Below are positions 1 through 27,337 of a stretch of DNA of 27,337 nt, piece after piece. How positions within the stretch are numbered: position 1 is the first letter of the stretch; each line of letters starts with the position of its first letter. The notes below the pieces were generated by a model. That model searched no databases. It saw only the letters and a program-made list of their open reading frames with translations, and was not told the DNA's origin. A program made the translations under genes and the position numbers. The stretch is from positions 1 to 27,337 of IMG/VR virus record IMGVR_UViG_3300049021_000015; one strand, written 5' to 3'. This stretch comes from a virus (lineage: Duplodnaviria; Caudoviricetes).

Positions 1-401
1 GCGGCGTACAGGCCGTGGCACCGGGAGCCCCCGCCGGGGTGGGCGGTGCAGTTCTCGACGCCGTGCGCGTGCGCGTCCTCGTCGTAGTTGAAGTCCTTGG
101 GGTCGCACCGGGCGCACTTGCCGTAGTAGCCGCTCTTGGTGCCTGCCCGCATGGGGAAGACGTGGATGCCGTGGGCGGCGTACGCGAGGGCCCACTCCCC
201 GAGGGTCTTTCCTGCGTGGGGGCCACGCAGGACGGTGCCCTTGCCGTCGAGGTATCCGAGGCGGCCGTTGGCGCTCGTGGTCAGATGAGTGCCGTTTGAG
301 GTGTTACCGGGTACCCTGTTACCAATGGTAACTCCGGTAGCCTCGCCTGTTTGTCCCCCTGGAGTTGACAGAGCCTCATCCAGCGGCATAACGTATGTCA
401 C
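1..401 (-). CDS. N-terminal part of a bifunctional DNA primase/polymerase (Prim-Pol); runs off the left edge; not in ORF track
   Basis: Manual translation from GTG at 401 (AGGAG at 413-409): MTYVMPLDEAL...GEWALAYAAHGIHVFPMRAGTKSGYYGKCARCDP...SRCHGLYAA, open to base 1. ALAYAxxGxxVFP and CHGxYAA are typical of actinobacterial Prim-Pol N-termini. Confidence 0.8.
   Translation of the reverse strand, partial: MTYVMPLDEALSTPGGQTGEATGVTIGNRVPGNTSNGTHLTTSANGRLGYLDGKGTVLRGPHAGKTLGEWALAYAAHGIHVFPMRAGTKSGYYGKCARCDPKDFNYDEDAHAHGVENCTAHPGGGSRCHGLYA
365..394 (+). promoter_or_regulatory. Sigma70/HrdB-type promoter facing antisense to the primase gene
   Basis: TTGACA (365-370), 18 nt, TAACGT (389-394); predicted start near 401. 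Confidence 0.6.
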
Positions 402-525
402 GTCAGCGCTCCTATTTGAACTTGAATCGGCGTAGGAACCGCGAGAGCTTCAATGACAGAGCGTCTGGTCCTTGCAGGACCGACACCACGCCCCCGGTCT
501 CTGACCACCGGGGGCTTTGTCGTTT
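401..525 (+). ncRNA. Putative counter-transcribed antisense RNA (~120 nt) covering the primase RBS and leader
   Basis: Bounded by the + strand promoter at 365-394 and the + strand terminator at 490-525. Internal hairpin GGTCCT-TGC-AGGACC (467-481). No credible ORF. Confidence 0.5.
490..525 (+). terminator. Intrinsic terminator on the + strand
   Basis: GCCCCCGGT (490-498) / ACCGGGGGC (507-515) stem followed by TTTGTCGTTT on +. Confidence 0.65.
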
Positions 526-542
526 CTGCTCTCGCGCGCCCA

Positions 543-571
543 AGGGTACGCGGTTGATCGTCTGATGTCAA
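543..571 (-). promoter_or_regulatory. Promoter for the primase-helicase gene
   Basis: Minus strand TTGACA (571-566), 17 nt, TACCCT (548-543). Confidence 0.65.
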
Positions 572-579
572 TCGGCGTG

Positions 580-798
580 TCAACCGTCGAGGATGTGGAC
601 CCCGAACCAGGTGGCGAATCCCGCCCATACCACCCCGAACACCCACCGCCCGGCACGGGTGTTGACCCTGAACCAGCGCCGCGTGGACTCCGATAGGGTG
701 TCTCCGGGGCGCGCGTTCTTCAGTGCGTAGACCTCGAACGCGGCCCCGGCGAGAAGCAGCCCGCCCCATACGGCGTTCGCTGCTGACGAGGCGTCCAT
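580..798 (-). CDS. Small membrane protein (72 aa), lysis region
   Basis: Start reassigned to ATG 798 (MDASSAANAVWGGLLLAG), coupled to the upstream stop; two hydrophobic segments. Confidence 0.75.
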   Translation of the reverse strand: MDASSAANAVWGGLLLAGAAFEVYALKNARPGDTLSESTRRWFRVNTRAGRWVFGVVWAGFATWFGVHILDG

Positions 799-1058
799 CA
801 CGGGCCGCCGAACACCTGGACCAGCAGCGGGATGGCCGTACCGATGAGCGCGGCGGCGCCCGAGGCCATCCACACCCGCTTCTCCAGTGCCGTGACCCTG
901 ATCTCCAGGGCCGCGATGTCGGCACCGTTGCGCACGCCTTCAGCGGTCAGCAGGTCCAGCTTCCCGTTGACCTGGGCGAATTCCTTCTGCATCTCTCCCC
1001 CGAGCTTGGTGATGGCCAGCTCGACGACGAGGTCAGACGTGTTGTCCGGCGCCATCAC
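798..1058 (-). CDS. Coiled-coil protein with C-terminal membrane anchor (lysis accessory/holin-like)
   Basis: DIAALEIRVTALEKRV followed by a hydrophobic C-terminus; start/stop overlaps with both neighbours. Confidence 0.75.
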   Translation of the reverse strand: MMAPDNTSDLVVELAITKLGGEMQKEFAQVNGKLDLLTAEGVRNGADIAALEIRVTALEKRVWMASGAAALIGTAIPLLVQVFGGP

Positions 1059-1267
1059 ACGTCACCCGACAGCGAGGCACTGTCCGGGTTGCCACGTCCA
1101 CGCGCGAGCAGGCCCTTGGCGAGCGACGCCACGGCCGCGACACCGCCACCGAGGGCCGCGTACCACATGTCCACGTTGGACAGCTCGGTGACGACCAGGG
1201 AGCCCAGCGCCCCCTGGATGAAGGTCATGGCGACCCGCTCCAGCAGGTCCTTTATGTACACGTTCAT
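1055..1267 (-). CDS. Holin (r1t-like, 70 aa)
   Basis: Start reassigned to ATG 1267: MNVYIKDLLERVAMTFIQGALG...AVASLAKGLLA...SASL; ERxxxTFxQ pattern; directly after the endolysin. Confidence 0.8.
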   Translation of the reverse strand: MNVYIKDLLERVAMTFIQGALGSLVVTELSNVDMWYAALGGGVAAVASLAKGLLARGRGNPDSASLSGDV

Positions 1268-1959
1268 GCCGCTTCCTCCAGCTTCTTGACGCGCTTCTCC
1301 AGGTCGGCGAGGCGCTGCTCGACGGTCTTCACCGGCACCGTGGGGGCGCCGGGGTTCCAGGAGGCGGGGTGCTTCAGGCGCTCGGCGACGGCGCCCCGGA
1401 AGTCGTTCATGTCGAAGCTGGGGTCGACCTTCCGGCGGGTCACCTCCTTGTGCCCGACCACCGAGTTGGCGGTCCACCCGTGCGCCCGGCAGATCGCCGC
1501 CGCCCAGCGGACGGCGGCGTCGTACTGCTTGGTGGGGTAGAGATCCTTGCCGTCGCCCTTGTTCTCGATCTCGATGCCGTACGTGCGGTCGTTGCCGTCG
1601 ATGGGCTCGGCCGCGTCGGGCCGGGGGTGGACGGATGCCTCGTGGAGCATGGCGCTGAAGGCGTTCTCCGCCACGGTGCCGACGTGGTTCGCCCGGCCGT
1701 GCCCGACCATGGTCGCGACGCCGCTCTTGGCCAGGTGGGTGTGGCACAGCGGGCCGGGGAGGTCGCCCGAGCCTCTGATGCAGAAGCCGAGGCTGTCCAC
1801 GCCCGCCGTGTGGTGGATGACGATCCCGTGCACGGGGCCGAACGGCTTGCCGGTCTCGTCGTCCCGGTTGCGGGTGCGCCAGCCGGGGTTCTCCACGACG
1901 TTCACGCCCTCGGCCTTGAGGAAGGCCACGAGTTCCGTCGCGGTCAGTGGTGTTGCCAT
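1264..1959 (-). CDS. Endolysin, N-acetylmuramoyl-L-alanine amidase (Amidase_2)
   Basis: IVIHHTAG, GPLCH, RANH, YGIEIEN, VGHKE...KVDP motifs. Confidence 0.92.
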   Translation of the reverse strand: MATPLTATELVAFLKAEGVNVVENPGWRTRNRDDETGKPFGPVHGIVIHHTAGVDSLGFCIRGSGDLPGPLCHTHLAKSGVATMVGHGRANHVGTVAENAFSAMLHEASVHPRPDAAEPIDGNDRTYGIEIENKGDGKDLYPTKQYDAAVRWAAAICRAHGWTANSVVGHKEVTRRKVDPSFDMNDFRGAVAERLKHPASWNPGAPTVPVKTVEQRLADLEKRVKKLEEAA

Positions 1960-18865: not shown

Positions 18866-19171
18866 TCAGAGTGACGACCGGGTCTTTCGCTCACCGTCGC
18901 CCTGCATGAAGGTCCGGGCGAACTCCCACGCGGTCTCGTTCTGGGGGACCTTCAGCTCCACCCTGCTCGGAAGCTCGATGGGGAGGTCCGGACGCCATGA
19001 CGCCCAGTGCTCGTCGTTGCTGGAGTACGCGTCGCAGGACGGACACCACGTCCCGAGCACCACGGGTGACCCATCGGCGAACACCATGTACACGCGGATC
19101 GTAAGCCCGCAGGTGGTGCACCAGGGCCGGGCTCCCGACCTCCACGCCAGCTGAGTCGGTCGTCGATTCAT
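18866..19171 (-). CDS. Small CxxC-CxxC protein (101 aa)
   Basis: WCTTCG and WCPSCD; TGATG coupling to the upstream gene; followed by a terminator. Confidence 0.7.
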   Translation of the reverse strand: MNRRPTQLAWRSGARPWCTTCGLTIRVYMVFADGSPVVLGTWCPSCDAYSSNDEHWASWRPDLPIELPSRVELKVPQNETAWEFARTFMQGDGERKTRSSL

Positions 19172-19881
19172 CAGTTCTCCTGCGTCTTCTGGAGGGTCTC
19201 GGCGTTCTCCTGGAGGCGCTCCTTGGCGATCTCCAGCGCCCGGCGGGCGGTCCAGTCGGACACCCCGTACGTCTTCATCACGGTGGAGCGGCCGGGCAGG
19301 GGCTCCCCGTTGGCGACCAGCTTCTCCACCAGGGTCTCCTGGTCGATCACCAGCCCCTCCAACGCACGCTCCAGCGTCGTCTGGGGCTCCTCCTGGAGGG
19401 GCGGCTCGAAGGCTGGAGGCGGCGGTGCGGGCAGCTCCTGCATCTGGTCGTACACCGGCGTGACCTGCGGCTGGAGGGCCTCCAGCTCCCCCTCCACGGG
19501 GGCTGGAGAGACCTGGAGGGGAGCCTCCTCGACGGCATCAGGGCGGTGACCCCACAGCAGGCCGTGCACCCGCCACAGGATGAGCGGCGCCACGCTGGAG
19601 ACCCCGATCACCACCCACGCCGTCATCTCCAGGAACTCGCTGGAGAGGAGGTGGGAGGTCGCCACCATCACCAGGAGGACACCCACCGCGAGGGCGGTGT
19701 CCCGTCGCTCCCGCAGAGCCACGAGCACGTACGCATCCAGCGCCGCCGGGAGGCACCAGGCCATCCCTCCAAAGCCGCACGCCACCGCCAGGTCGTACTC
19801 CGCCGACGCGGTGGAGGCGGCGCACACCAGATAGACGATGGTTCCGATGGTCTTGTTGGCCGCTACACTTCGTACTTGCAT
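19171..19881 (-). CDS. Multi-pass membrane protein with C-terminal HTH-like tail (SpdA/DUF2637-like)
   Basis: Start reassigned to ATG 19881 (GAAAGGG RBS); about four TM segments (TASAEYDLA...LPAALDAY...APLILWRVH), Pro/Glu linker, GRSTVMKTYGVSDWTARR. Confidence 0.65.
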   Translation of the reverse strand: MQVRSVAANKTIGTIVYLVCAASTASAEYDLAVACGFGGMAWCLPAALDAYVLVALRERRDTALAVGVLLVMVATSHLLSSEFLEMTAWVVIGVSSVAPLILWRVHGLLWGHRPDAVEEAPLQVSPAPVEGELEALQPQVTPVYDQMQELPAPPPPAFEPPLQEEPQTTLERALEGLVIDQETLVEKLVANGEPLPGRSTVMKTYGVSDWTARRALEIAKERLQENAETLQKTQEN

Positions 19882-19950
19882 GGGTTCCCTTTCGAGGGGA
19901 TCTACCGGCCCGGACCCCGATGCGGGGGTCCGGGCCACTTTCATATCAGG

Positions 19951-20088
19951 TCACTGGTGCGGGCAGTCGGATACCCACCAGCCGCACTGCCCGCAGTAGG
20001 TCGCCGGGCCGTACGAGGGGCCGTGCGGGCATGAGGTGCGGAACCAGCCCCCGCAGGCCACGCAGAAGTAGTTCAGGAGCTTCTTCAC
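19951..20088 (-). CDS. 45-aa microprotein with two CxxC...CPH repeats; not in ORF track
   Basis: GGAGG RBS, GTG overlapping the upstream stop: MKKLLNYFCVACGGWFRTSCPHGPSYGPATYCGQCGWWVSDCPHQ. Confidence 0.75.
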   Translation of the reverse strand: MKKLLNYFCVACGGWFRTSCPHGPSYGPATYCGQCGWWVSDCPHQ

Positions 20089-20525
20089 GACGCCTCCTTC
20101 TGCGGGGCCTTGTCGAGCCACACCAGGTGCGTCCTGGCCGGATCACGCGGGTCACGCACCTTCAGCACACGGGCCTTACCGATGCGCCCCTTCTCGATCT
20201 CAAGCTCCTGACCAGCCTCTTCGTCTTCGAGGGGAGGGGCCTCGGTGGGGGAGGGGAGGGCTTGGTCCGTACCAACCTCGACGTCGGCGAAGACGCCCAC
20301 CGCAACGAACCAGCCAGCCGGGAGGACGTACGGCAGGGCGCCCAGCGCCCACAGCGTGCCGCCCCCGAACCATAGGACGGCCACCGTCCCCGCCGCCCGC
20401 GTGGCGACCAGACCGGCCCGCTTGCCGCCGGTCTCCGCCTTCGCCGCCTGGTACCACCACAGACGCCAGGCCGTGTTCGCCGTCCCCGACCACATCACGC
20501 GGCCCATCACACGGAAGCCGTTCAC
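20085..20525 (-). CDS. Membrane protein (146 aa)
   Basis: Start reassigned to GTG 20525 (GTGA overlap); two hydrophobic segments and a charged C-terminus. Confidence 0.7.
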   Translation of the reverse strand: MNGFRVMGRVMWSGTANTAWRLWWYQAAKAETGGKRAGLVATRAAGTVAVLWFGGGTLWALGALPYVLPAGWFVAVGVFADVEVGTDQALPSPTEAPPLEDEEAGQELEIEKGRIGKARVLKVRDPRDPARTHLVWLDKAPQKEAS

Positions 20526-21025
20526 GCGAACACCCCCGTGAAGACGACGCCCATGCCGTTCACGGCGGAGGCGAGCGGGATGGCGGCGGCACCGGCGATC
20601 GATCCCGACAGGCCCAGCCCGCACCCGGCGATGAAGCCGCCGAGCACCTTCCACTTCGAGATCTTCGAGAACTTGAACAGGGCCACCAGGACCACCGTCA
20701 ACAGGAACAGGATCACGTACCCGCCAGGGGTGAGCACGATCTGCTGGGCCCGCGTCACGTCCTGGTTCGAGCCTCCGACGCCCCACACCAGGCCGATGTA
20801 CCCGGCCAGGTTGTTCACCCACAGGGCGCCCCAGGAGACCGCCCCCAGGCCCGACCAGGCGCCCGCCGTGCCGAGGATCGCGAGGATCCCGTACGCGATC
20901 GAGAGGCAGAAGGAGATGATCTTCTTGGGCTTGTGGCCCTCCTTGATCCACCAGTGCATGGCGAACCAGATGATGATGCCGGTCGCGGCTGCGATCCCCG
21001 CAAGGGATACAGTCGTGTAGTTCAT
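20522..21025 (-). CDS. Multi-pass membrane protein (167 aa)
   Basis: Start reassigned to ATG 21025 (MNYTTVSLAG); four to five Gly-rich hydrophobic segments. Confidence 0.75.
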   Translation of the reverse strand: MNYTTVSLAGIAAATGIIIWFAMHWWIKEGHKPKKIISFCLSIAYGILAILGTAGAWSGLGAVSWGALWVNNLAGYIGLVWGVGGSNQDVTRAQQIVLTPGGYVILFLLTVVLVALFKFSKISKWKVLGGFIAGCGLGLSGSIAGAAAIPLASAVNGMGVVFTGVFA

Positions 21026-21046
21026 GGAGCTACCTCTCCGTGGACA

Positions 21047-21078
21047 GGCCCCCGCTCGCCGGAATCGAGTCGGGGGCC
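21047..21078. terminator. Intergenic stem-loop
   Basis: GGCCCCCG-CTCG...CGAG-T-CGGGGGCC; no U-tract. Confidence 0.45.
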
Positions 21079-21090
21079 GCCTTGTGATGG

Positions 21091-21408
21091 TCAGCTGAGC
21101 AGCAGCCTGTAGGTGAAGGCCACGTCGTACATCTTGTGGACCGGGCCGTCCAGGTCTTCGCCCTTGTCGAACGCCCTGGCGATGGCGATCCAGGTCTCCA
21201 TCAGCCGTTCCAGCGCGTGCTCGTGGGCGTGGTGGGCCATCGTCATGTAGAACGCCCCGGCCGCCGGGAGCAGAGCGCAGTCCGCGTGGCCGTCCAGCGG
21301 GCACGAGCGGTGCTTCCGCACCTCACGCAGCAGGACCGCCTCGGCGTCGATACGGTTCGTGCCCGGCGTCATCGAGCGGATGACCCGGTCGAAGCTCTCA
21401 GGCCGCAT
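21091..21408 (-). CDS. Hypothetical protein (105 aa)
   Basis: GGGAG RBS, operon packing, high GC3. Confidence 0.65.
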   Translation of the reverse strand: MRPESFDRVIRSMTPGTNRIDAEAVLLREVRKHRSCPLDGHADCALLPAAGAFYMTMAHHAHEHALERLMETWIAIARAFDKGEDLDGPVHKMYDVAFTYRLLLS

Positions 21409-22687: not shown

Positions 22688-22953
22688 GACGCCTCCTCGG
22701 GGTGCGTGTTCGAGTAGCTGTTCGCCTCGAAGGTGGTGCGCTCGCCGCAGAGACGGTCGAGGGCCTGAGACTGAGTGGTGTACGGCGTCATGCCGCAGGC
22801 TTCGATGGAGTCGCGGACGGCCTGGTGACACTCGGAGCAGACGAGGACGTCCACGGTCAGGGAGCCGTGGGCGCGGCCGTTGCGGGGGCTGTAACCCTCC
22901 ACGGCCATCCGCGCCTTGTTCAGGCAGATGCCGACGCGGTCGAAGGTGATCAC
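22684..22953 (-). CDS. Hypothetical protein (89 aa, CSECH motif)
   Basis: Start reassigned to GTG 22953 (GGAGG RBS, GTGA overlap). Confidence 0.65.
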   Translation of the reverse strand: MITFDRVGICLNKARMAVEGYSPRNGRAHGSLTVDVLVCSECHQAVRDSIEACGMTPYTTQSQALDRLCGERTTFEANSYSNTHPEEAS

Positions 22954-23195
22954 TTCGCCTCCTTCCTCGTAAAGCAGATGAATGTGCCGTCGTCGGCCAG
23001 CTGCGTCTGGAGCGTGAAGCCGTGTCGGCGGGCGTGGTTGCGTGCCACCGACTGGAAGACCCGCGTCGTGGTCTGGTAGTCGGAGCCCTGCTTGAGGTGC
23101 CACCACTCGCCGTCGGTCCAGTCGTTCCATGGGTAGACACCCCTGGCCCCAGGCTTGGGCTTAGTGACCCGCGTGGGGTCGGCGTGTTGTGCCAT
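22950..23195 (-). CDS. Small basic protein, first gene of the early operon (candidate regulator)
   Basis: 81 aa, YPWNDWTDGEWWHL; leaderless promoter directly upstream. Confidence 0.7.
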   Translation of the reverse strand: MAQHADPTRVTKPKPGARGVYPWNDWTDGEWWHLKQGSDYQTTTRVFQSVARNHARRHGFTLQTQLADDGTFICFTRKEAK

Positions 23196-23371: not shown

Positions 23372-24349
23372 TCATGACAACTCTTCCAACTTCTCTGCGA
23401 TCGAAGCACCGACCGTGTAGGCAGGGCTGTTGGTCAGCCTGTTACGTGCGCGGTCATAGCGTCGTGTAGTACGAGGATCCTTGTGATCCACCGCGTCCTG
23501 CACCACATGCAGCGCAGCTCCCTTGTCCAGCGCATCCGTGATGAACCCGTGACGCAGCACGTGAGGGTGGATGGTGTCCGCCTGCGGTAGCCCTGCACGC
23601 TTGGCCAGGCGCCTCAGCATCTTCCATGCCTCAGGCTCCCCCATACGGGCCCCTGAGCTGGTGATGAACAGCGGGCCCTCGGTGCGTCCATCGAGGTACT
23701 CATCGATCGCGTGAGACGTGATGGGAGGCAGCGCCTTCTTCGAGGTGCCCCCACCCTTGAGGCGCACCGTGATCGTCCTGTGCCCCTTGTCGTAGCCCAG
23801 GCTGTCCACATCGGCGCCCAGTGCCCCATCGATGCGCAGGCCCACGGTGTAGAGCAGCATGCACAGGGCGTAGCTGCGACGGCTGCTCTTGTGGGCCGTG
23901 ACCAGCAGCAGGGCCATCTCGTCCTCGGTGAGGCCCTCGGTGTCCGAGTGGTCCACGTCCACGGTGGGGCGCTCGACGCCGTCGAAGGGGTTGTAGTCCA
24001 CGACGCGCAGGCGCTTGGCGTACTTGTAGAAGCTGGAGGCCACAGAGAGGTACTGGGCGCCCGAGGTGTTCTTCCCGCCGTCCAGGGAGCGTCCGTACGC
24101 CTCGGCGTGCGGGTAACCCGCCTGCATGGGGTGAACGTCCACCGAGCGGCAGAACGCCTCCCAGCGCTTGAAGCCCCGGACGTACGACTTACGGGTGTTG
24201 GCCGACTTCTTCGACGTGATCCACATCGAGACGAGACGCGGCAGGTCGTCGCTGTACGTCTGTTCGAGTTCGCGCCGGGCGCGCTCGGACTCGACCGGCT
24301 CGACGGCCGTCGTTTCGGTACCCGCGTAGGGCTCAAGTGCTGTGCTCAT
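23372..24349 (-). CDS. Tyrosine recombinase, XerC/D-like (SAM-like N-domain plus catalytic domain)
   Basis: GLRIDG (R), LKGG (K), HPHVLRH (HxxR), DHKDPRTTRRYD (H, Y); KSANTRKSY N-domain; start reassigned to ATG 24349. Confidence 0.92.
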   Translation of the reverse strand: MSTALEPYAGTETTAVEPVESERARRELEQTYSDDLPRLVSMWITSKKSANTRKSYVRGFKRWEAFCRSVDVHPMQAGYPHAEAYGRSLDGGKNTSGAQYLSVASSFYKYAKRLRVVDYNPFDGVERPTVDVDHSDTEGLTEDEMALLLVTAHKSSRRSYALCMLLYTVGLRIDGALGADVDSLGYDKGHRTITVRLKGGGTSKKALPPITSHAIDEYLDGRTEGPLFITSSGARMGEPEAWKMLRRLAKRAGLPQADTIHPHVLRHGFITDALDKGAALHVVQDAVDHKDPRTTRRYDRARNRLTNSPAYTVGASIAEKLEELS

Positions 24350-24356
24350 ACAGAGA

Positions 24357-24376
24357 AGGATAACGGACATTATCCT
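24357..24376. other. dif-like candidate recombination site AGGATAA-CGGACA-TTATCCT
   Basis: Perfect 7-bp inverted arms around an asymmetric 6-bp spacer with an ATAA-N6-TTAT core. Confidence 0.6.
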
Positions 24377-24386
24377 GCCGTGTCAA
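24357..24386 (-). promoter_or_regulatory. Leaderless promoter of the recombinase
   Basis: TTGACA (24386-24381), 18 nt, TATCCT (24362-24357), 7 nt, ATG. Confidence 0.65.
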
Positions 24387-24513
24387 GTAGACATGGGCAC
24401 GTCAAGAATTGAGGCCCGTTCTGATGACCCGTCAGTAACATGACGATGAACCTGACTGCGTGTCAGATGATCATGGCGTGCTCATGTCAAGTGCGGTGCG
24501 TTACCACGCCATG

Positions 24514-24557
24514 ATGACAACGTTGTCAAGCCTGGGCCGTCCCGACAACGTTGTCAT
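24514..24557. repeat. Two copies of palindrome GACAACGTTGTC
   Basis: 24516-24527 and 24544-24555; further copies at 11595-11606 and 14824-14835. Confidence 0.85.
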
Positions 24558-24652
24558 GTTGAAAGTTCAACTATGCGAACTCGACTGCGTGAGGTAATTG
24601 AAGATTCAACTAAACGGACTTCTCCACTCAAGGTGGTTGAAAGTTCAACTAT
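24558..24652. repeat. Three TTGAA-NN-TTCAACTA palindromic repeats at 39-bp period
   Basis: TTGAA starts at 24559, 24598 and 24637; copies 1 and 3 are identical over 17 bp. Confidence 0.85.
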
Positions 24653-24760
24653 TCGGACCTTCGCTGCGCCCGGTTGGAGGATCGTACAAAGATCAGAAAA
24701 GTTTGGGATTCGCTTGACATCTCCTGCGGCTTACGGCGCGCGATTTGTCCTGCCACCCTT

Positions 24761-25060
24761 CCCTGTCACACCCACCCGGCAGCCGTCACACCCCCTGTCA
24801 CACCCCCCTGTGACGCCCATCGCCGCAGGTCAGGTGCCCCTGTCACAGGCGTCGCGGGGTGTCACACCCCTAAACGGCTGGGGGCGTCATACACACACCC
24901 ACTACTCCTCTCTTTTGTTCTCCCGCGCATACACTCTTGGAGTTAGGGGTGTGACGGGGTGTGACACGGCCTCTGACCTGCATAAAGACCGTCGCACCCC
25001 CCCTGTGACAGGGGGTGTGACACCCCCGTGACAGGGGTGTGACAGGCACGCTCAGTCACC
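24761..25060. repeat. Iteron-like GTCACA/TGTGAC array, probable replication origin
   Basis: About 12 copies, mostly GTCACA on the left and TGTGAC on the right of an AT-richer core; located downstream of the primase-helicase. Confidence 0.7.
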
Positions 25061-25131: not shown

Positions 25132-25410
25132 CTACCTGCTGCCCATCGCCTTGTATGCCGCGATCAGCTCTTTCTGATGCAGTCGACGTCCCGCGTCCTG
25201 GCGAGCAGCGTGAATCCGCATCTGAGGGGCGTGTTCACGCGGCGGGAGACCCAGGGCAGCCCTCTTGCGGTCGTACACCGCCAGCCTGGCGTTCTTCCTG
25301 GGGGCATCGCACTCTTCGCCCGGCTGCGCCTTGCATCGAACGCAGTGCAGCCTCATGGCGTACTCGTACGTCGAGTACACCGGCACCTGGGGGTCGTCGC
25401 CCTGGCTCAC
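25132..25410 (-). CDS. Small zinc-finger protein (CxxCxAxPGxxC...HxxR)
   Basis: CVRCKAQPGEEC...IHAARQ; GTGA coupling to the helicase stop. Confidence 0.75.
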   Translation of the reverse strand: MSQGDDPQVPVYSTYEYAMRLHCVRCKAQPGEECDAPRKNARLAVYDRKRAALGLPPREHAPQMRIHAARQDAGRRLHQKELIAAYKAMGSR

Positions 25411-27337
25411 TTGCTCTCCTCGGTGGTGTTGATCGTCATCTGGATGTTGCCGTTGGACTGGGTGGCGGGGACGACCATCCCCTCCTCAGTGGCGAGCGTG
25501 ATGCCCGTGTAGACGCGCATGACCTTGCCGTTGATCCGCTTCTGTCCCTGGGCGATGCCGGGGAAGGCCGCGTAGAGGTCCGTGGCGAACTGGGCGGTGG
25601 TCCCGACGGCCTGCACGTTGTTGACCATGCACCAGCTCTTCCAGGCGGCGAACAGGCTGTCCTTGAGGATCCACTGCCCCTCGCCGCGTACGGCCTGCTC
25701 GTCGACGAACGCCTTGATGGGGGAGGCGTTGTCCCGCTGGGTCTGGAGCGTCTCCATGGCCGAGCCGGGCTGGACGAACCGCCCACGCTCGGTGAGCCGC
25801 TTCAGGCCCTCCAGGGCCCAGTTGAAGATGCCGGGCAGCTCGGTGGTGAGCCGGGCCTCCAGGGTCTCGTCCTCGCGGCCCTCGAAGCTCTGGGTGAACT
25901 GCACGGTGATCCACCGGCTGACGATGGCGCCGGAGACGTCGGAGAACTTCGGGGGCTTGTTGGCGAGGATCATGACGCGGGCGCCGAGCCGTCCCACCCA
26001 TTCTGTGCGGTTCTTGCGGTCGATGGTGATCGAGTCTTCGCCGGTGATCATGAGGAGGCGGGTGACGATGGCGGCGTTGTTGCGGTTCTCCATGTGGGCG
26101 TCGCCGACGACGCACAGGCTCTTGCCGACGAGTCCGGCGAGGCCGAACTGCCGCCCGATGTCGCCGAGCGTGGTGCCGGTGGAGTTCTCCTTGCCGATCA
26201 GCTTCTCCAGGATCCGCGCCACGGTGCCCTTACCGGCACGGGGCGGGCCGATGAGCTGGATGCCCTTCTGGAGGTCGGTGCGGCCCGAGAGGACGTACCC
26301 GGCCCACTCCTGGATGGCCTGGATGGACTCGGCGTCATCGCCGAAGACGAGCTTCAGGAAGCCCAGCCACTGCGGGCATTCGGCCTGGGGGTCGTAGGCG
26401 TACGGCACGGACGTGGTGGTGAAGTAGGCGGGGGTGTGTCCGGTGGTGACCCTGGTGAGGGGGTCGACGAGGGTGTTGCGGCAGGAGATGAGGCCCTTCT
26501 TGCCCGCGCACCCGAGCCAGGATCCGGTCTCCACGCTCTCGTCGAGGTGGGTGACGGCGGAGATGGCGTCGATAAGGTTGCCGATCTTCTTCTGGGTGGG
26601 GTTCCAGGGCTTGAAGAGGGGCTGACCCTTCTTGTCGGCGCCCTGGTAGACGGCGTGTTCCAGCTCCAGATAGAGGCGGGTCTTCAGGGCGGAGGCGCCG
26701 GTCTCGCGCCAGTGGGTCCCCGTCCACTGCATCCACGTCTCGCGCCAGTGGTAGAGGGTCTTGCCCTGGGGGGTGGTCCACAGGGGCTCCAGCTGGCGCG
26801 CGACCTTCATGGGGGCGTCGGGCTCGGCGTGTACGGGCGCGTGGTTGGTGGGGGCGTCCTCGTCGCGGGGCTCCGGGATCTCGACGGTGTCGTTCATGTC
26901 CTGCCCCTTCTGGGCCGTCGAGTTACCGCGAGTAACCCACTGGTATGCCTTGATCGCCTTCCGGCGGGCGCTCGCCACGGTGCCTCGGACCATGGACTCG
27001 TCGTTGTCGGCGTGGAGCCCGGCCTGGGTGAAGATGAACTCGACCTCGTCGTGGTCGATCTGGCCCGCGTTGGCGTACTCGAACGCCTTGACGGCGTTCT
27101 GGAAGAGGACGTTGTTCCGGTGGCCCTGGGGCGCCATGGCCGCCTCGTCGGCGAGCTGGGTGACCCGGTCCTGTACGCCTACCGAGGTCGCGCCTGTGCC
27201 GCCCGTGTACGGCCGGGGGGCGGGCGCCGTGGCCTTCTTGCGCTCGATCTCCTCGACGACCCACATGGGCAGCTCGGGGATCTCCTGCCAGGGGTCGTTC
27301 AGCCACACGTACTGGCCCTTGACCATGGCGGGTCGGC
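25407..27337 (-). CDS. Primase/helicase, P4/D5-like SF3 helicase (5'-truncated at the window edge)
   Basis: Walker A GPPRAGKGT, Walker B LCVVGD, motif C ILANK, GHTPAYFTT...YDPQAECPQW, PriCT-like GHRNNVLF; frame open to the window edge. Confidence 0.93.
   Translation of the reverse strand, partial: RPAMVKGQYVWLNDPWQEIPELPMWVVEEIERKKATAPAPRPYTGGTGATSVGVQDRVTQLADEAAMAPQGHRNNVLFQNAVKAFEYANAGQIDHDEVEFIFTQAGLHADNDESMVRGTVASARRKAIKAYQWVTRGNSTAQKGQDMNDTVEIPEPRDEDAPTNHAPVHAEPDAPMKVARQLEPLWTTPQGKTLYHWRETWMQWTGTHWRETGASALKTRLYLELEHAVYQGADKKGQPLFKPWNPTQKKIGNLIDAISAVTHLDESVETGSWLGCAGKKGLISCRNTLVDPLTRVTTGHTPAYFTTTSVPYAYDPQAECPQWLGFLKLVFGDDAESIQAIQEWAGYVLSGRTDLQKGIQLIGPPRAGKGTVARILEKLIGKENSTGTTLGDIGRQFGLAGLVGKSLCVVGDAHMENRNNAAIVTRLLMITGEDSITIDRKNRTEWVGRLGARVMILANKPPKFSDVSGAIVSRWITVQFTQSFEGREDETLEARLTTELPGIFNWALEGLKRLTERGRFVQPGSAMETLQTQRDNASPIKAFVDEQAVRGEGQWILKDSLFAAWKSWCMVNNVQAVGTTAQFATDLYAAFPGIAQGQKRINGKVMRVYTGITLATEEGMVVPATQSNGNIQMTINTTEESK

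Follow-up and report, generated by a model that had tools for sequence, protein, structure and literature searches.

Antisense control of Rep synthesis is textbook knowledge for plasmids. The described systems that come closest to the locus reported here are outlined below. In the Corynebacterium pGA1/pCG1 family, a ctRNA (cgrI) lies antisense over the rep start and limits both Rep and the copy number (PMC9592669, PMC13088423). RNAII of pMV158, a Firmicutes rolling-circle plasmid, is a 48-nt countertranscript that consists of a tail and an intrinsic terminator, inhibits repB translation and works with CopG (PMC4485353). RNAIII of pIP501 is 136 nt long, belongs to a rep leader with convergent promoters, and acts by attenuation, for which a sense-strand terminator is needed (PMC4981023). 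The CI RNA of phage P4, a phage-plasmid, arises by cleavage of the sense transcript, and its pairing partners are seqA and seqC (PMC4825925). In the extrachromosomal prophages of cluster A mycobacteriophages, which have no Rep, a non-coding RNA next to parABS is the required initiator (PMC7157519).

In the locus studied here, a predicted antisense RNA runs across the rep start of an actinobacterial replicon, as described for pGA1/pCG1. It is not a member of that family; no Rfam ctRNA match was obtained even at E 10. It is directed against the Prim-Pol/SF3 helicase of a tailed phage instead of a plasmid Rep, and, unlike in pGA1/pCG1, both promoter boxes lie inside coding codons 3–13. The predicted RNA resembles pMV158 RNAII, as described, in its tail-plus-terminator form directed against rep translation; however, at about 125 nt it is longer, it does not belong to the RNAII family, and no CopG counterpart was found in the window. 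With the reported pIP501 RNAIII it shares a similar length and convergent rep-leader promoters, but not the sense-strand terminator. As in the account of P4 CI, an RNA (here predicted) would control a P4-family primase-helicase; unlike P4 CI, this RNA has its own opposite-strand promoter. The cluster A prophages, for which phage-plasmid status is reported, are likewise actinobacterial phage replicons with a non-coding RNA, but theirs is described as an initiator whereas ours is predicted to inhibit a Rep. Among literature titles and abstract openings, no report was found of antisense Rep control in a Streptomyces phage or of a Prim-Pol/SF3 replicase.

The window, which is the whole stretch analysed (27,337 bp) and the whole virus record, is the nearly closed genome of a small, Streptomyces-like soil phage. 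All recognised genes (terminase, portal, protease, capsid, tail, endolysin, holin, tyrosine recombinase and primase-helicase) are on the minus strand. Both ends of the window cut inside rep. A second sequence, L001, bridges them with 329 extra bases and restores a single 886-aa ORF from GTG 401. The genome is therefore circular and about 27.67 kb in size; in a public run it is present as a single 27,682-bp contig. Capsid relatives with 44–57% identity were present in 8 of 401 Streptomyces genomes. The best plasmid matches of the recombinase were on Streptomyces plasmids (41–50% identity), and it is 46% identical to the recombinase of a closed Streptomyces phage-plasmid. Judged from these capsid and recombinase matches, the host is likely Streptomyces. 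The coordinates of the features are summarized in Table 1.

Table 1 Features of the rep locus and of the linked replicon genes in the window.
Feature	Position	Strand	Basis and remarks
Predicted antisense promoter, TTGACA (365–370)-18-TAACGT (389–394)	365..394	+	Sequence and homologue offset; in rep codons 3–13
Predicted rep promoter, TTGACA (571–566)-17-TACCCT (548–543)	543..571	-	Sequence; +1 near 536
Predicted antisense RNA, ~125 nt, 5' end at rep start codon	400..525	+	Promoter/terminator geometry; ends inferred
Apical stem-loop of predicted RNA, loop CGUAGGAA at 431–438	427..444	+	Folding; all 5 leader differences of L002 fall here
Likely intrinsic terminator for the antisense RNA, GC-rich hairpin followed by T-rich tail	490..525	+	Folding and tail composition
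Three-way-junction fold, 97 nt, 5' end of rep leader	440..536	-	z −7.66
Predicted hairpin, GUUCCUA (439–433) with AGGAG ribosome-binding site (413–409)	409..439	-	Folding
rep 5' part, Prim-Pol domain, GTG start	1..401	-	Start aligned with homologues; continues over the 329-bp gap into 27337–25407; whole 886-aa ORF in L001
rep 3' part, D5/P4-family SF3 helicase	25407..27337	-	Domain matches
Xer-like tyrosine recombinase	23372..24370	-	Nearest plasmid-collection matches on Streptomyces plasmids and a phage-plasmid
TGTCACACCCC-like repeats, dense array, two inverted blocks (both orientations)	24760..25046	.	Downstream of rep operon; candidate origin, putative function

Several other elements of the genome were recorded. 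At 24558–24658, upstream of the recombinase promoter region, the palindrome TTGAA-N4-TTCAA is present three times with a spacing of exactly 39 bp, which looks operator-like; TTGAA half-sites also occur in the rep leader (416–426) and are kept in strain L002. The region before the recombinase (24370–24560) is a candidate resolution site, with several TTGAC sites and a pair of GACAACGTTGTC palindromes separated by 28 bp. GTTACC/GGTAAC repeats and palindromes cluster at 303–336, in rep codons 22–33. The membrane-protein genes at 19171–21304 have no family match, and we take them to resemble Streptomyces plasmid spread genes; one has a weak C-terminal GntR-like HTH match. The look-alikes of an 81-aa ORF at 22950–23195 are all unnamed.

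The earlier note on this DNA had described two convergent promoters, a hairpin and an AGGAG ribosome-binding site in the rep leader, and re-inspection of the sequence confirmed all of these positions. The pattern TTGACA-17/18-TANNNT occurs at three sites in the 27,337 bp, compared with 0.045 expected from 200 dinucleotide shuffles. The sites start at 365 on the plus strand and at 571 and 24386 on the minus strand, the last being located before the recombinase; the first two form the convergent pair, and the one at 365 is the sole plus-strand site in the genome. When region 280–620 was shuffled 20,000 times, a site on either strand arose in about 0.1% of the shuffles, and sites on both strands never did. 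The promoter pair is more than chance. An E. coli-type promoter scanner called no promoter, because both −10 boxes of the pair fit TANNNT and not TATAAT. The S. lividans promoter consensus is TANNNT and TGAC with 18–19 nt spacers by the authors' count (PMC6742748). The antisense promoter faces no gene, and its predicted +1 falls on the rep start codon. A 56-codon plus-strand ORF at 395 begins before the predicted +1 and is broken in L002; a 34-codon ORF at 453 is intact in the window and L002 but crosses the terminator. A 12-nt direct repeat (366–377 and 454–465, 11 of 12 identical) has its first copy in the antisense −35 region. In a longer antisense fold, the second copy is predicted to be able to pair with the terminator tail, as an anti-terminator might.

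The hairpin at 490–515 has 9 bp, 8 of them G-C, and a stability of −19.1 kcal/mol. Its plus-strand tail, TTTGTCGTTT, contains 7 T in 10 positions, compared with 3 in 10 on the minus side. The T-tract had been noted as lying on the plus strand, unlike those of the other terminators; the orientation holds, but it is not unique, as the hairpin at 19907–19936 is also T-rich on the plus side (5/10). A 17-mer of the hairpin matched 12 viral stretches, two of which are the window phage and the others unrelated, several being generic terminators. Hairpins of this type are common in the window and in other actinobacterial elements, so the hairpin by itself weighs little and the promoter pair is the main signal.

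Three elements make up the fold of the predicted RNA, namely an imperfect 5' stem capped by an apical loop, a short hairpin, and the terminator; the span of the RNA covers the AGGAG located 7 nt before the GTG (401–399). The plus-strand fold of 401–527 gave a z of −2.95, which became −0.49 without the terminator. Only the terminator exceeded shuffles in stability; the 5' part was no more structured than they were. At the motif level, the predicted RNA has three features of a countertranscript, namely its own opposite promoter, complementarity to the leader and start, and a likely intrinsic terminator. The earlier proposal of a ctRNA-type architecture gains support from this, with a GTG start confirmed by homologues and an antisense promoter that is apparently conserved.

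Database comparison yielded no named family. Rfam gave no ctRNA in window positions 1–1500, where four chance matches at E 1–10 were obtained, and no match at gathering score in eight related loci. BLASTN of the leader, and likewise of two distant leaders, against phages and plasmids returned nothing meaningful. YUNR motifs in two loops were dismissed as too short to count. RNA runs X18–X20 contributed low, scattered, unstranded contigs, and that none is listed over 365–571 carries no weight.

Homologues with 66–69% identity start where the window GTG does, which places the antisense promoter in coding codons 3–13 with its predicted +1 on the start codon. Codon compatibility was evaluated in 13 proteins including the window. 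All six close clusters with a full N-terminus (P0004, P0005, P0006, P0007, P0017 and P0018) have residues compatible with TTGACA-18-TANNNT at exactly nt 8–37, as does the window. In five of the six, this is the sole compatible place in about 2,600 nt. The near-copies P0169 and P0176 were also compatible; P0008, P0170, P0166 and P0167 are outside the count, as their called starts lie downstream (P0008 and P0170 form one close cluster). Codon 3 encodes Y/Q/H/N/N/H/D, with a middle A throughout, and codon 5 encodes M/M/M/K/T/M/T, with a first A throughout; these are the sets expected if nt 8 and nt 13 were each constrained to A. Mean identity over codons 2–10 is 19%, and codons 3, 5 and 11–13 carry promoter-compatible residues. 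Among 143 unrelated primase N-termini, the −10 part was compatible in 21 and the −35 part in one. Searches of viral, genome and metagenome collections did not recover the DNA of the 66–69% homologues. At the protein level, by codon compatibility and with shared ancestry not removed, the antisense promoter appears to be conserved among close relatives. Residues that vary where the nucleotides behind them seem constant are indirect evidence of a DNA element. Two proteins, P0009 and P0176, combine the same Prim-Pol N-terminus with a swapped helicase domain, and locus L061 shows the reverse swap; the leader and promoter module travels across these differing Rep architectures.

We compared the window with strain L002, which differs at 18 of 800 positions. 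All five leader differences are confined to 18 nt at the predicted recognition loop (427–444), preserve the apical hairpin through G-U pairs that are workable on the antisense strand only, and alter one loop base. Between these two sequences, the differences have the pattern that would be expected of incompatibility divergence. Three DNA runs were identical to the window there and contained no variant in 280–590, so no covariation is readable for the window leader.

Three distant phage loci (L019, L020 and L021), with 45–48% identity in the Prim-Pol domain, could be examined as DNA. Each has a single strict site in 1.7–7.0 kb, which is antisense and inside the rep N-terminus, and a tandem second site, TTGACA-18-nAnnnT, closer to the start. 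Both antisense sites were also present in L066 and L061, which came from a pattern scan with 13 matches, 11 of which were dropped for lack of a rep match. As the proximal −35 was part of the scan pattern, its presence in these two loci is not independent evidence; the pattern is absent from the 401 Streptomyces genomes. In L061, the site precedes a different N-terminal domain. In all five loci, the promoters use a reading frame other than that of the window, and a terminator-like hairpin upstream of the sense −10 box gives predicted RNAs of roughly 235–300 nt. The 104-kb genome of L061 is phage-plasmid-like: it encodes a tyrosine recombinase, and its parA lies upstream of the leader at a distance of about 1.1 kb. 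The 102-kb genome of L066 has neither and carries several XRE genes. Leftward genes lie beyond the hairpin in L020, L021 and L066, so the antisense promoter there may simply drive that operon. No strict antisense site was found in the integrated relatives L017 and L028 or in the plasmid primase loci L003, L004 and L025–L027. Covariation among relatives, proposed earlier as a check, was modest in the five distant leaders, with two-sided changes in 10 of 30 sense and 12 of 29 antisense pairs and an unfavourable covariation term, and it does not discriminate between the strands.

Other primase leaders were noted in this comparison. Those of pFP11 (L026:3790–3920) and pSTS2 (L027:3820–3940) share a CAGAAAC lead and the hairpin layout with the window; an antisense TACnnT box at ORF nt 3–8 with a non-consensus −35 makes them possible sources of countertranscripts in lab-studied plasmids. 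A conserved leader of ~90 nt was found directly before Prim-Pol in 21 of 30 loci (L030–L059), which rank highest among the 386 matches to Prim-Pol from 151 Streptomyces genomes. It consists of a GC hairpin with a CGCCAAAG-type loop, followed by GGAG and AGCATG, and is a candidate undescribed cis-regulatory RNA or DNA motif. A covariance model (R1) built from these 21 leaders matched further upstream in all of the other nine loci at 67–100 bits. Two-sided changes occur in 7 of 10 pairs. The leader had no Rfam match in the one locus tested, and the window did not match R1 at E 1.

The sequences themselves show a promoter motif on each strand, a hairpin resembling a terminator, the rep start codon, no plus-strand gene for the antisense promoter to drive, and signals of conservation in relatives. 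From these we infer transcription, the RNA ends, pairing and a translational block, and we favour, with moderate confidence, the following model. The plus-strand promoter in rep codons 3–13 would drive a cis-antisense RNA of ~125 nt, whose pairing with the rep leader would begin at the start codon and extend over the AGGAG. Pairing would hinder ribosome loading and block translation of the primase-helicase, and collision of convergent polymerases would probably add to this block. RNA output would scale with genome number, and replication would thus be damped by dosage-dependent feedback on copy number. The least certain step is that the feedback would serve a plasmid-like prophage or carrier state rather than lytic pacing only. 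The antisense arrangement is real and probably functional.

The promoter could instead be real and act in cis by transcriptional interference only, with the RNA as a by-product. The two promoters face each other 150 nt apart and the antisense one is nearer to consensus; moreover, the promoter is conserved and not the RNA sequence, with RNA length changing from about 125 to 235–300 nt between subfamilies, and convergent transcription acts in pIP501 (PMC4981023). Such a reading does not account for a terminator that restricts the RNA to the leader and start region, for a fixed offset that sets its 5' end on the start codon in 7 of 7 proteins, or for strain variation concentrated in one loop, and we regard it as rather unlikely.

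The sense leader was also considered as the main regulator, either as a P4 CI-like processed RNA or as a structural switch in which a hairpin occludes the SD and a pseudoknot forms. The antisense RNA would then only tune the leader, possibly via attenuation or by freeing the SD. The 97-nt fold begins at the predicted +1, and its energy is below that of all 1090 sampled 97-nt minus-strand windows. However, the two strands of 440–536 fold equally well (−57.9 and −57.7 kcal/mol), so the energy picks no strand and the case for a special sense fold is weakened. The SD is predicted to be paired, with an opening cost of 3–6.5 kcal/mol that varies with transcript length, and the anti-SD strand has its complement in the antisense loop. 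The loop of the 490–515 hairpin has a perfect 9-nt complement at 285–277 (shuffle p about 0.01, post hoc), but 6 of 83 leader windows reach complementarity of this length. Although rep is a P4-family primase, an upstream seqA site has no room, and the leader has neither a T-tailed terminator on the sense strand nor an Rfam match. Overall, control mainly by the sense leader is unlikely. An immunity RNA of the P4 CI type, a product of sense-leader processing that relies on seqA upstream and seqC downstream and brings about premature termination, was rejected, with a fold that starts at the predicted +1, no sense terminator, and just the post hoc downstream complement.

In leader-peptide-coupled systems (R1 tap, ColIb repY), a conserved leader ORF is coupled to rep. 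Coupling of this type was rejected here: the 25-codon sense ORF in the leader has no usable RBS and its frame changes in L002.

The earlier note had also suggested that the RNA could provide immunity in place of a CI repressor. We consider it unlikely that the RNA is a lysis-lysogeny and superinfection-immunity switch of this kind. No XRE, HTH_3 or HTH_31 repressor gene was detected in the window, and this absence of a detectable repressor is the argument for immunity in place of CI. An identical incoming genome would be subject in trans to an RNA covering the rep SD, and P4 replication genes are silenced by RNA (PMC4825925). Against this, only the rep operon would be silenced and other promoters would remain untouched; the palindromes at 24558–24658 suggest a protein regulator, and several small ORFs have no assignment. 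The relatives G402 and G403 carry the antisense module together with XRE-type HTH genes, so this module does not generally stand in for CI; temperate behaviour is itself putative. It is highly improbable that the motif is no regulatory-RNA promoter at all (a chance match, a repeat bound by protein, a primer for replication or a small gene on the plus strand): distant homologues have two or three copies of GTCAAY in their N-terminal extension, as would be expected of binding repeats, but both boxes and the spacing are kept, the ORF at 395 is broken in L002 and that at 453 runs through the terminator, and the iteron-like array sits about 3 kb from the promoter on the circle.

Copy-number control by the antisense RNA requires a plasmid state, which is putative. 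The circular genome, the plasmid-type recombinase and the repeat array point to such a state; opposing it, there is no parA in the window and the phage was not found in cultured strains. No close replicon was present in the 401 Streptomyces genomes, where two distant matches reached about 50% identity, and no replicon match above about 44% was obtained among plasmids. The closest relatives are known solely from contigs of at most about 28.5 kb. Control of genome copy number by the predicted RNA is plausible. An unlikely but more far-reaching scenario is that, in a family of small Streptomyces phages without repressor or partition genes, a single antisense RNA governs the whole decision between lysis and a quiet plasmid-like state as well as the exclusion of superinfecting phages. 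Its promoter would lie in the first 13 primase-helicase codons, and immunity groups would diverge by one-loop changes.

If the arrangement is real, conservation of a promoter would be readable from protein sequence alone. The promoter pair, leader, rep and repeat array would form a compact replicon for tunable-copy Streptomyces vectors. It would also hint at the way in which small, uncultured phage-plasmids of soil are maintained when parA and CI are missing.
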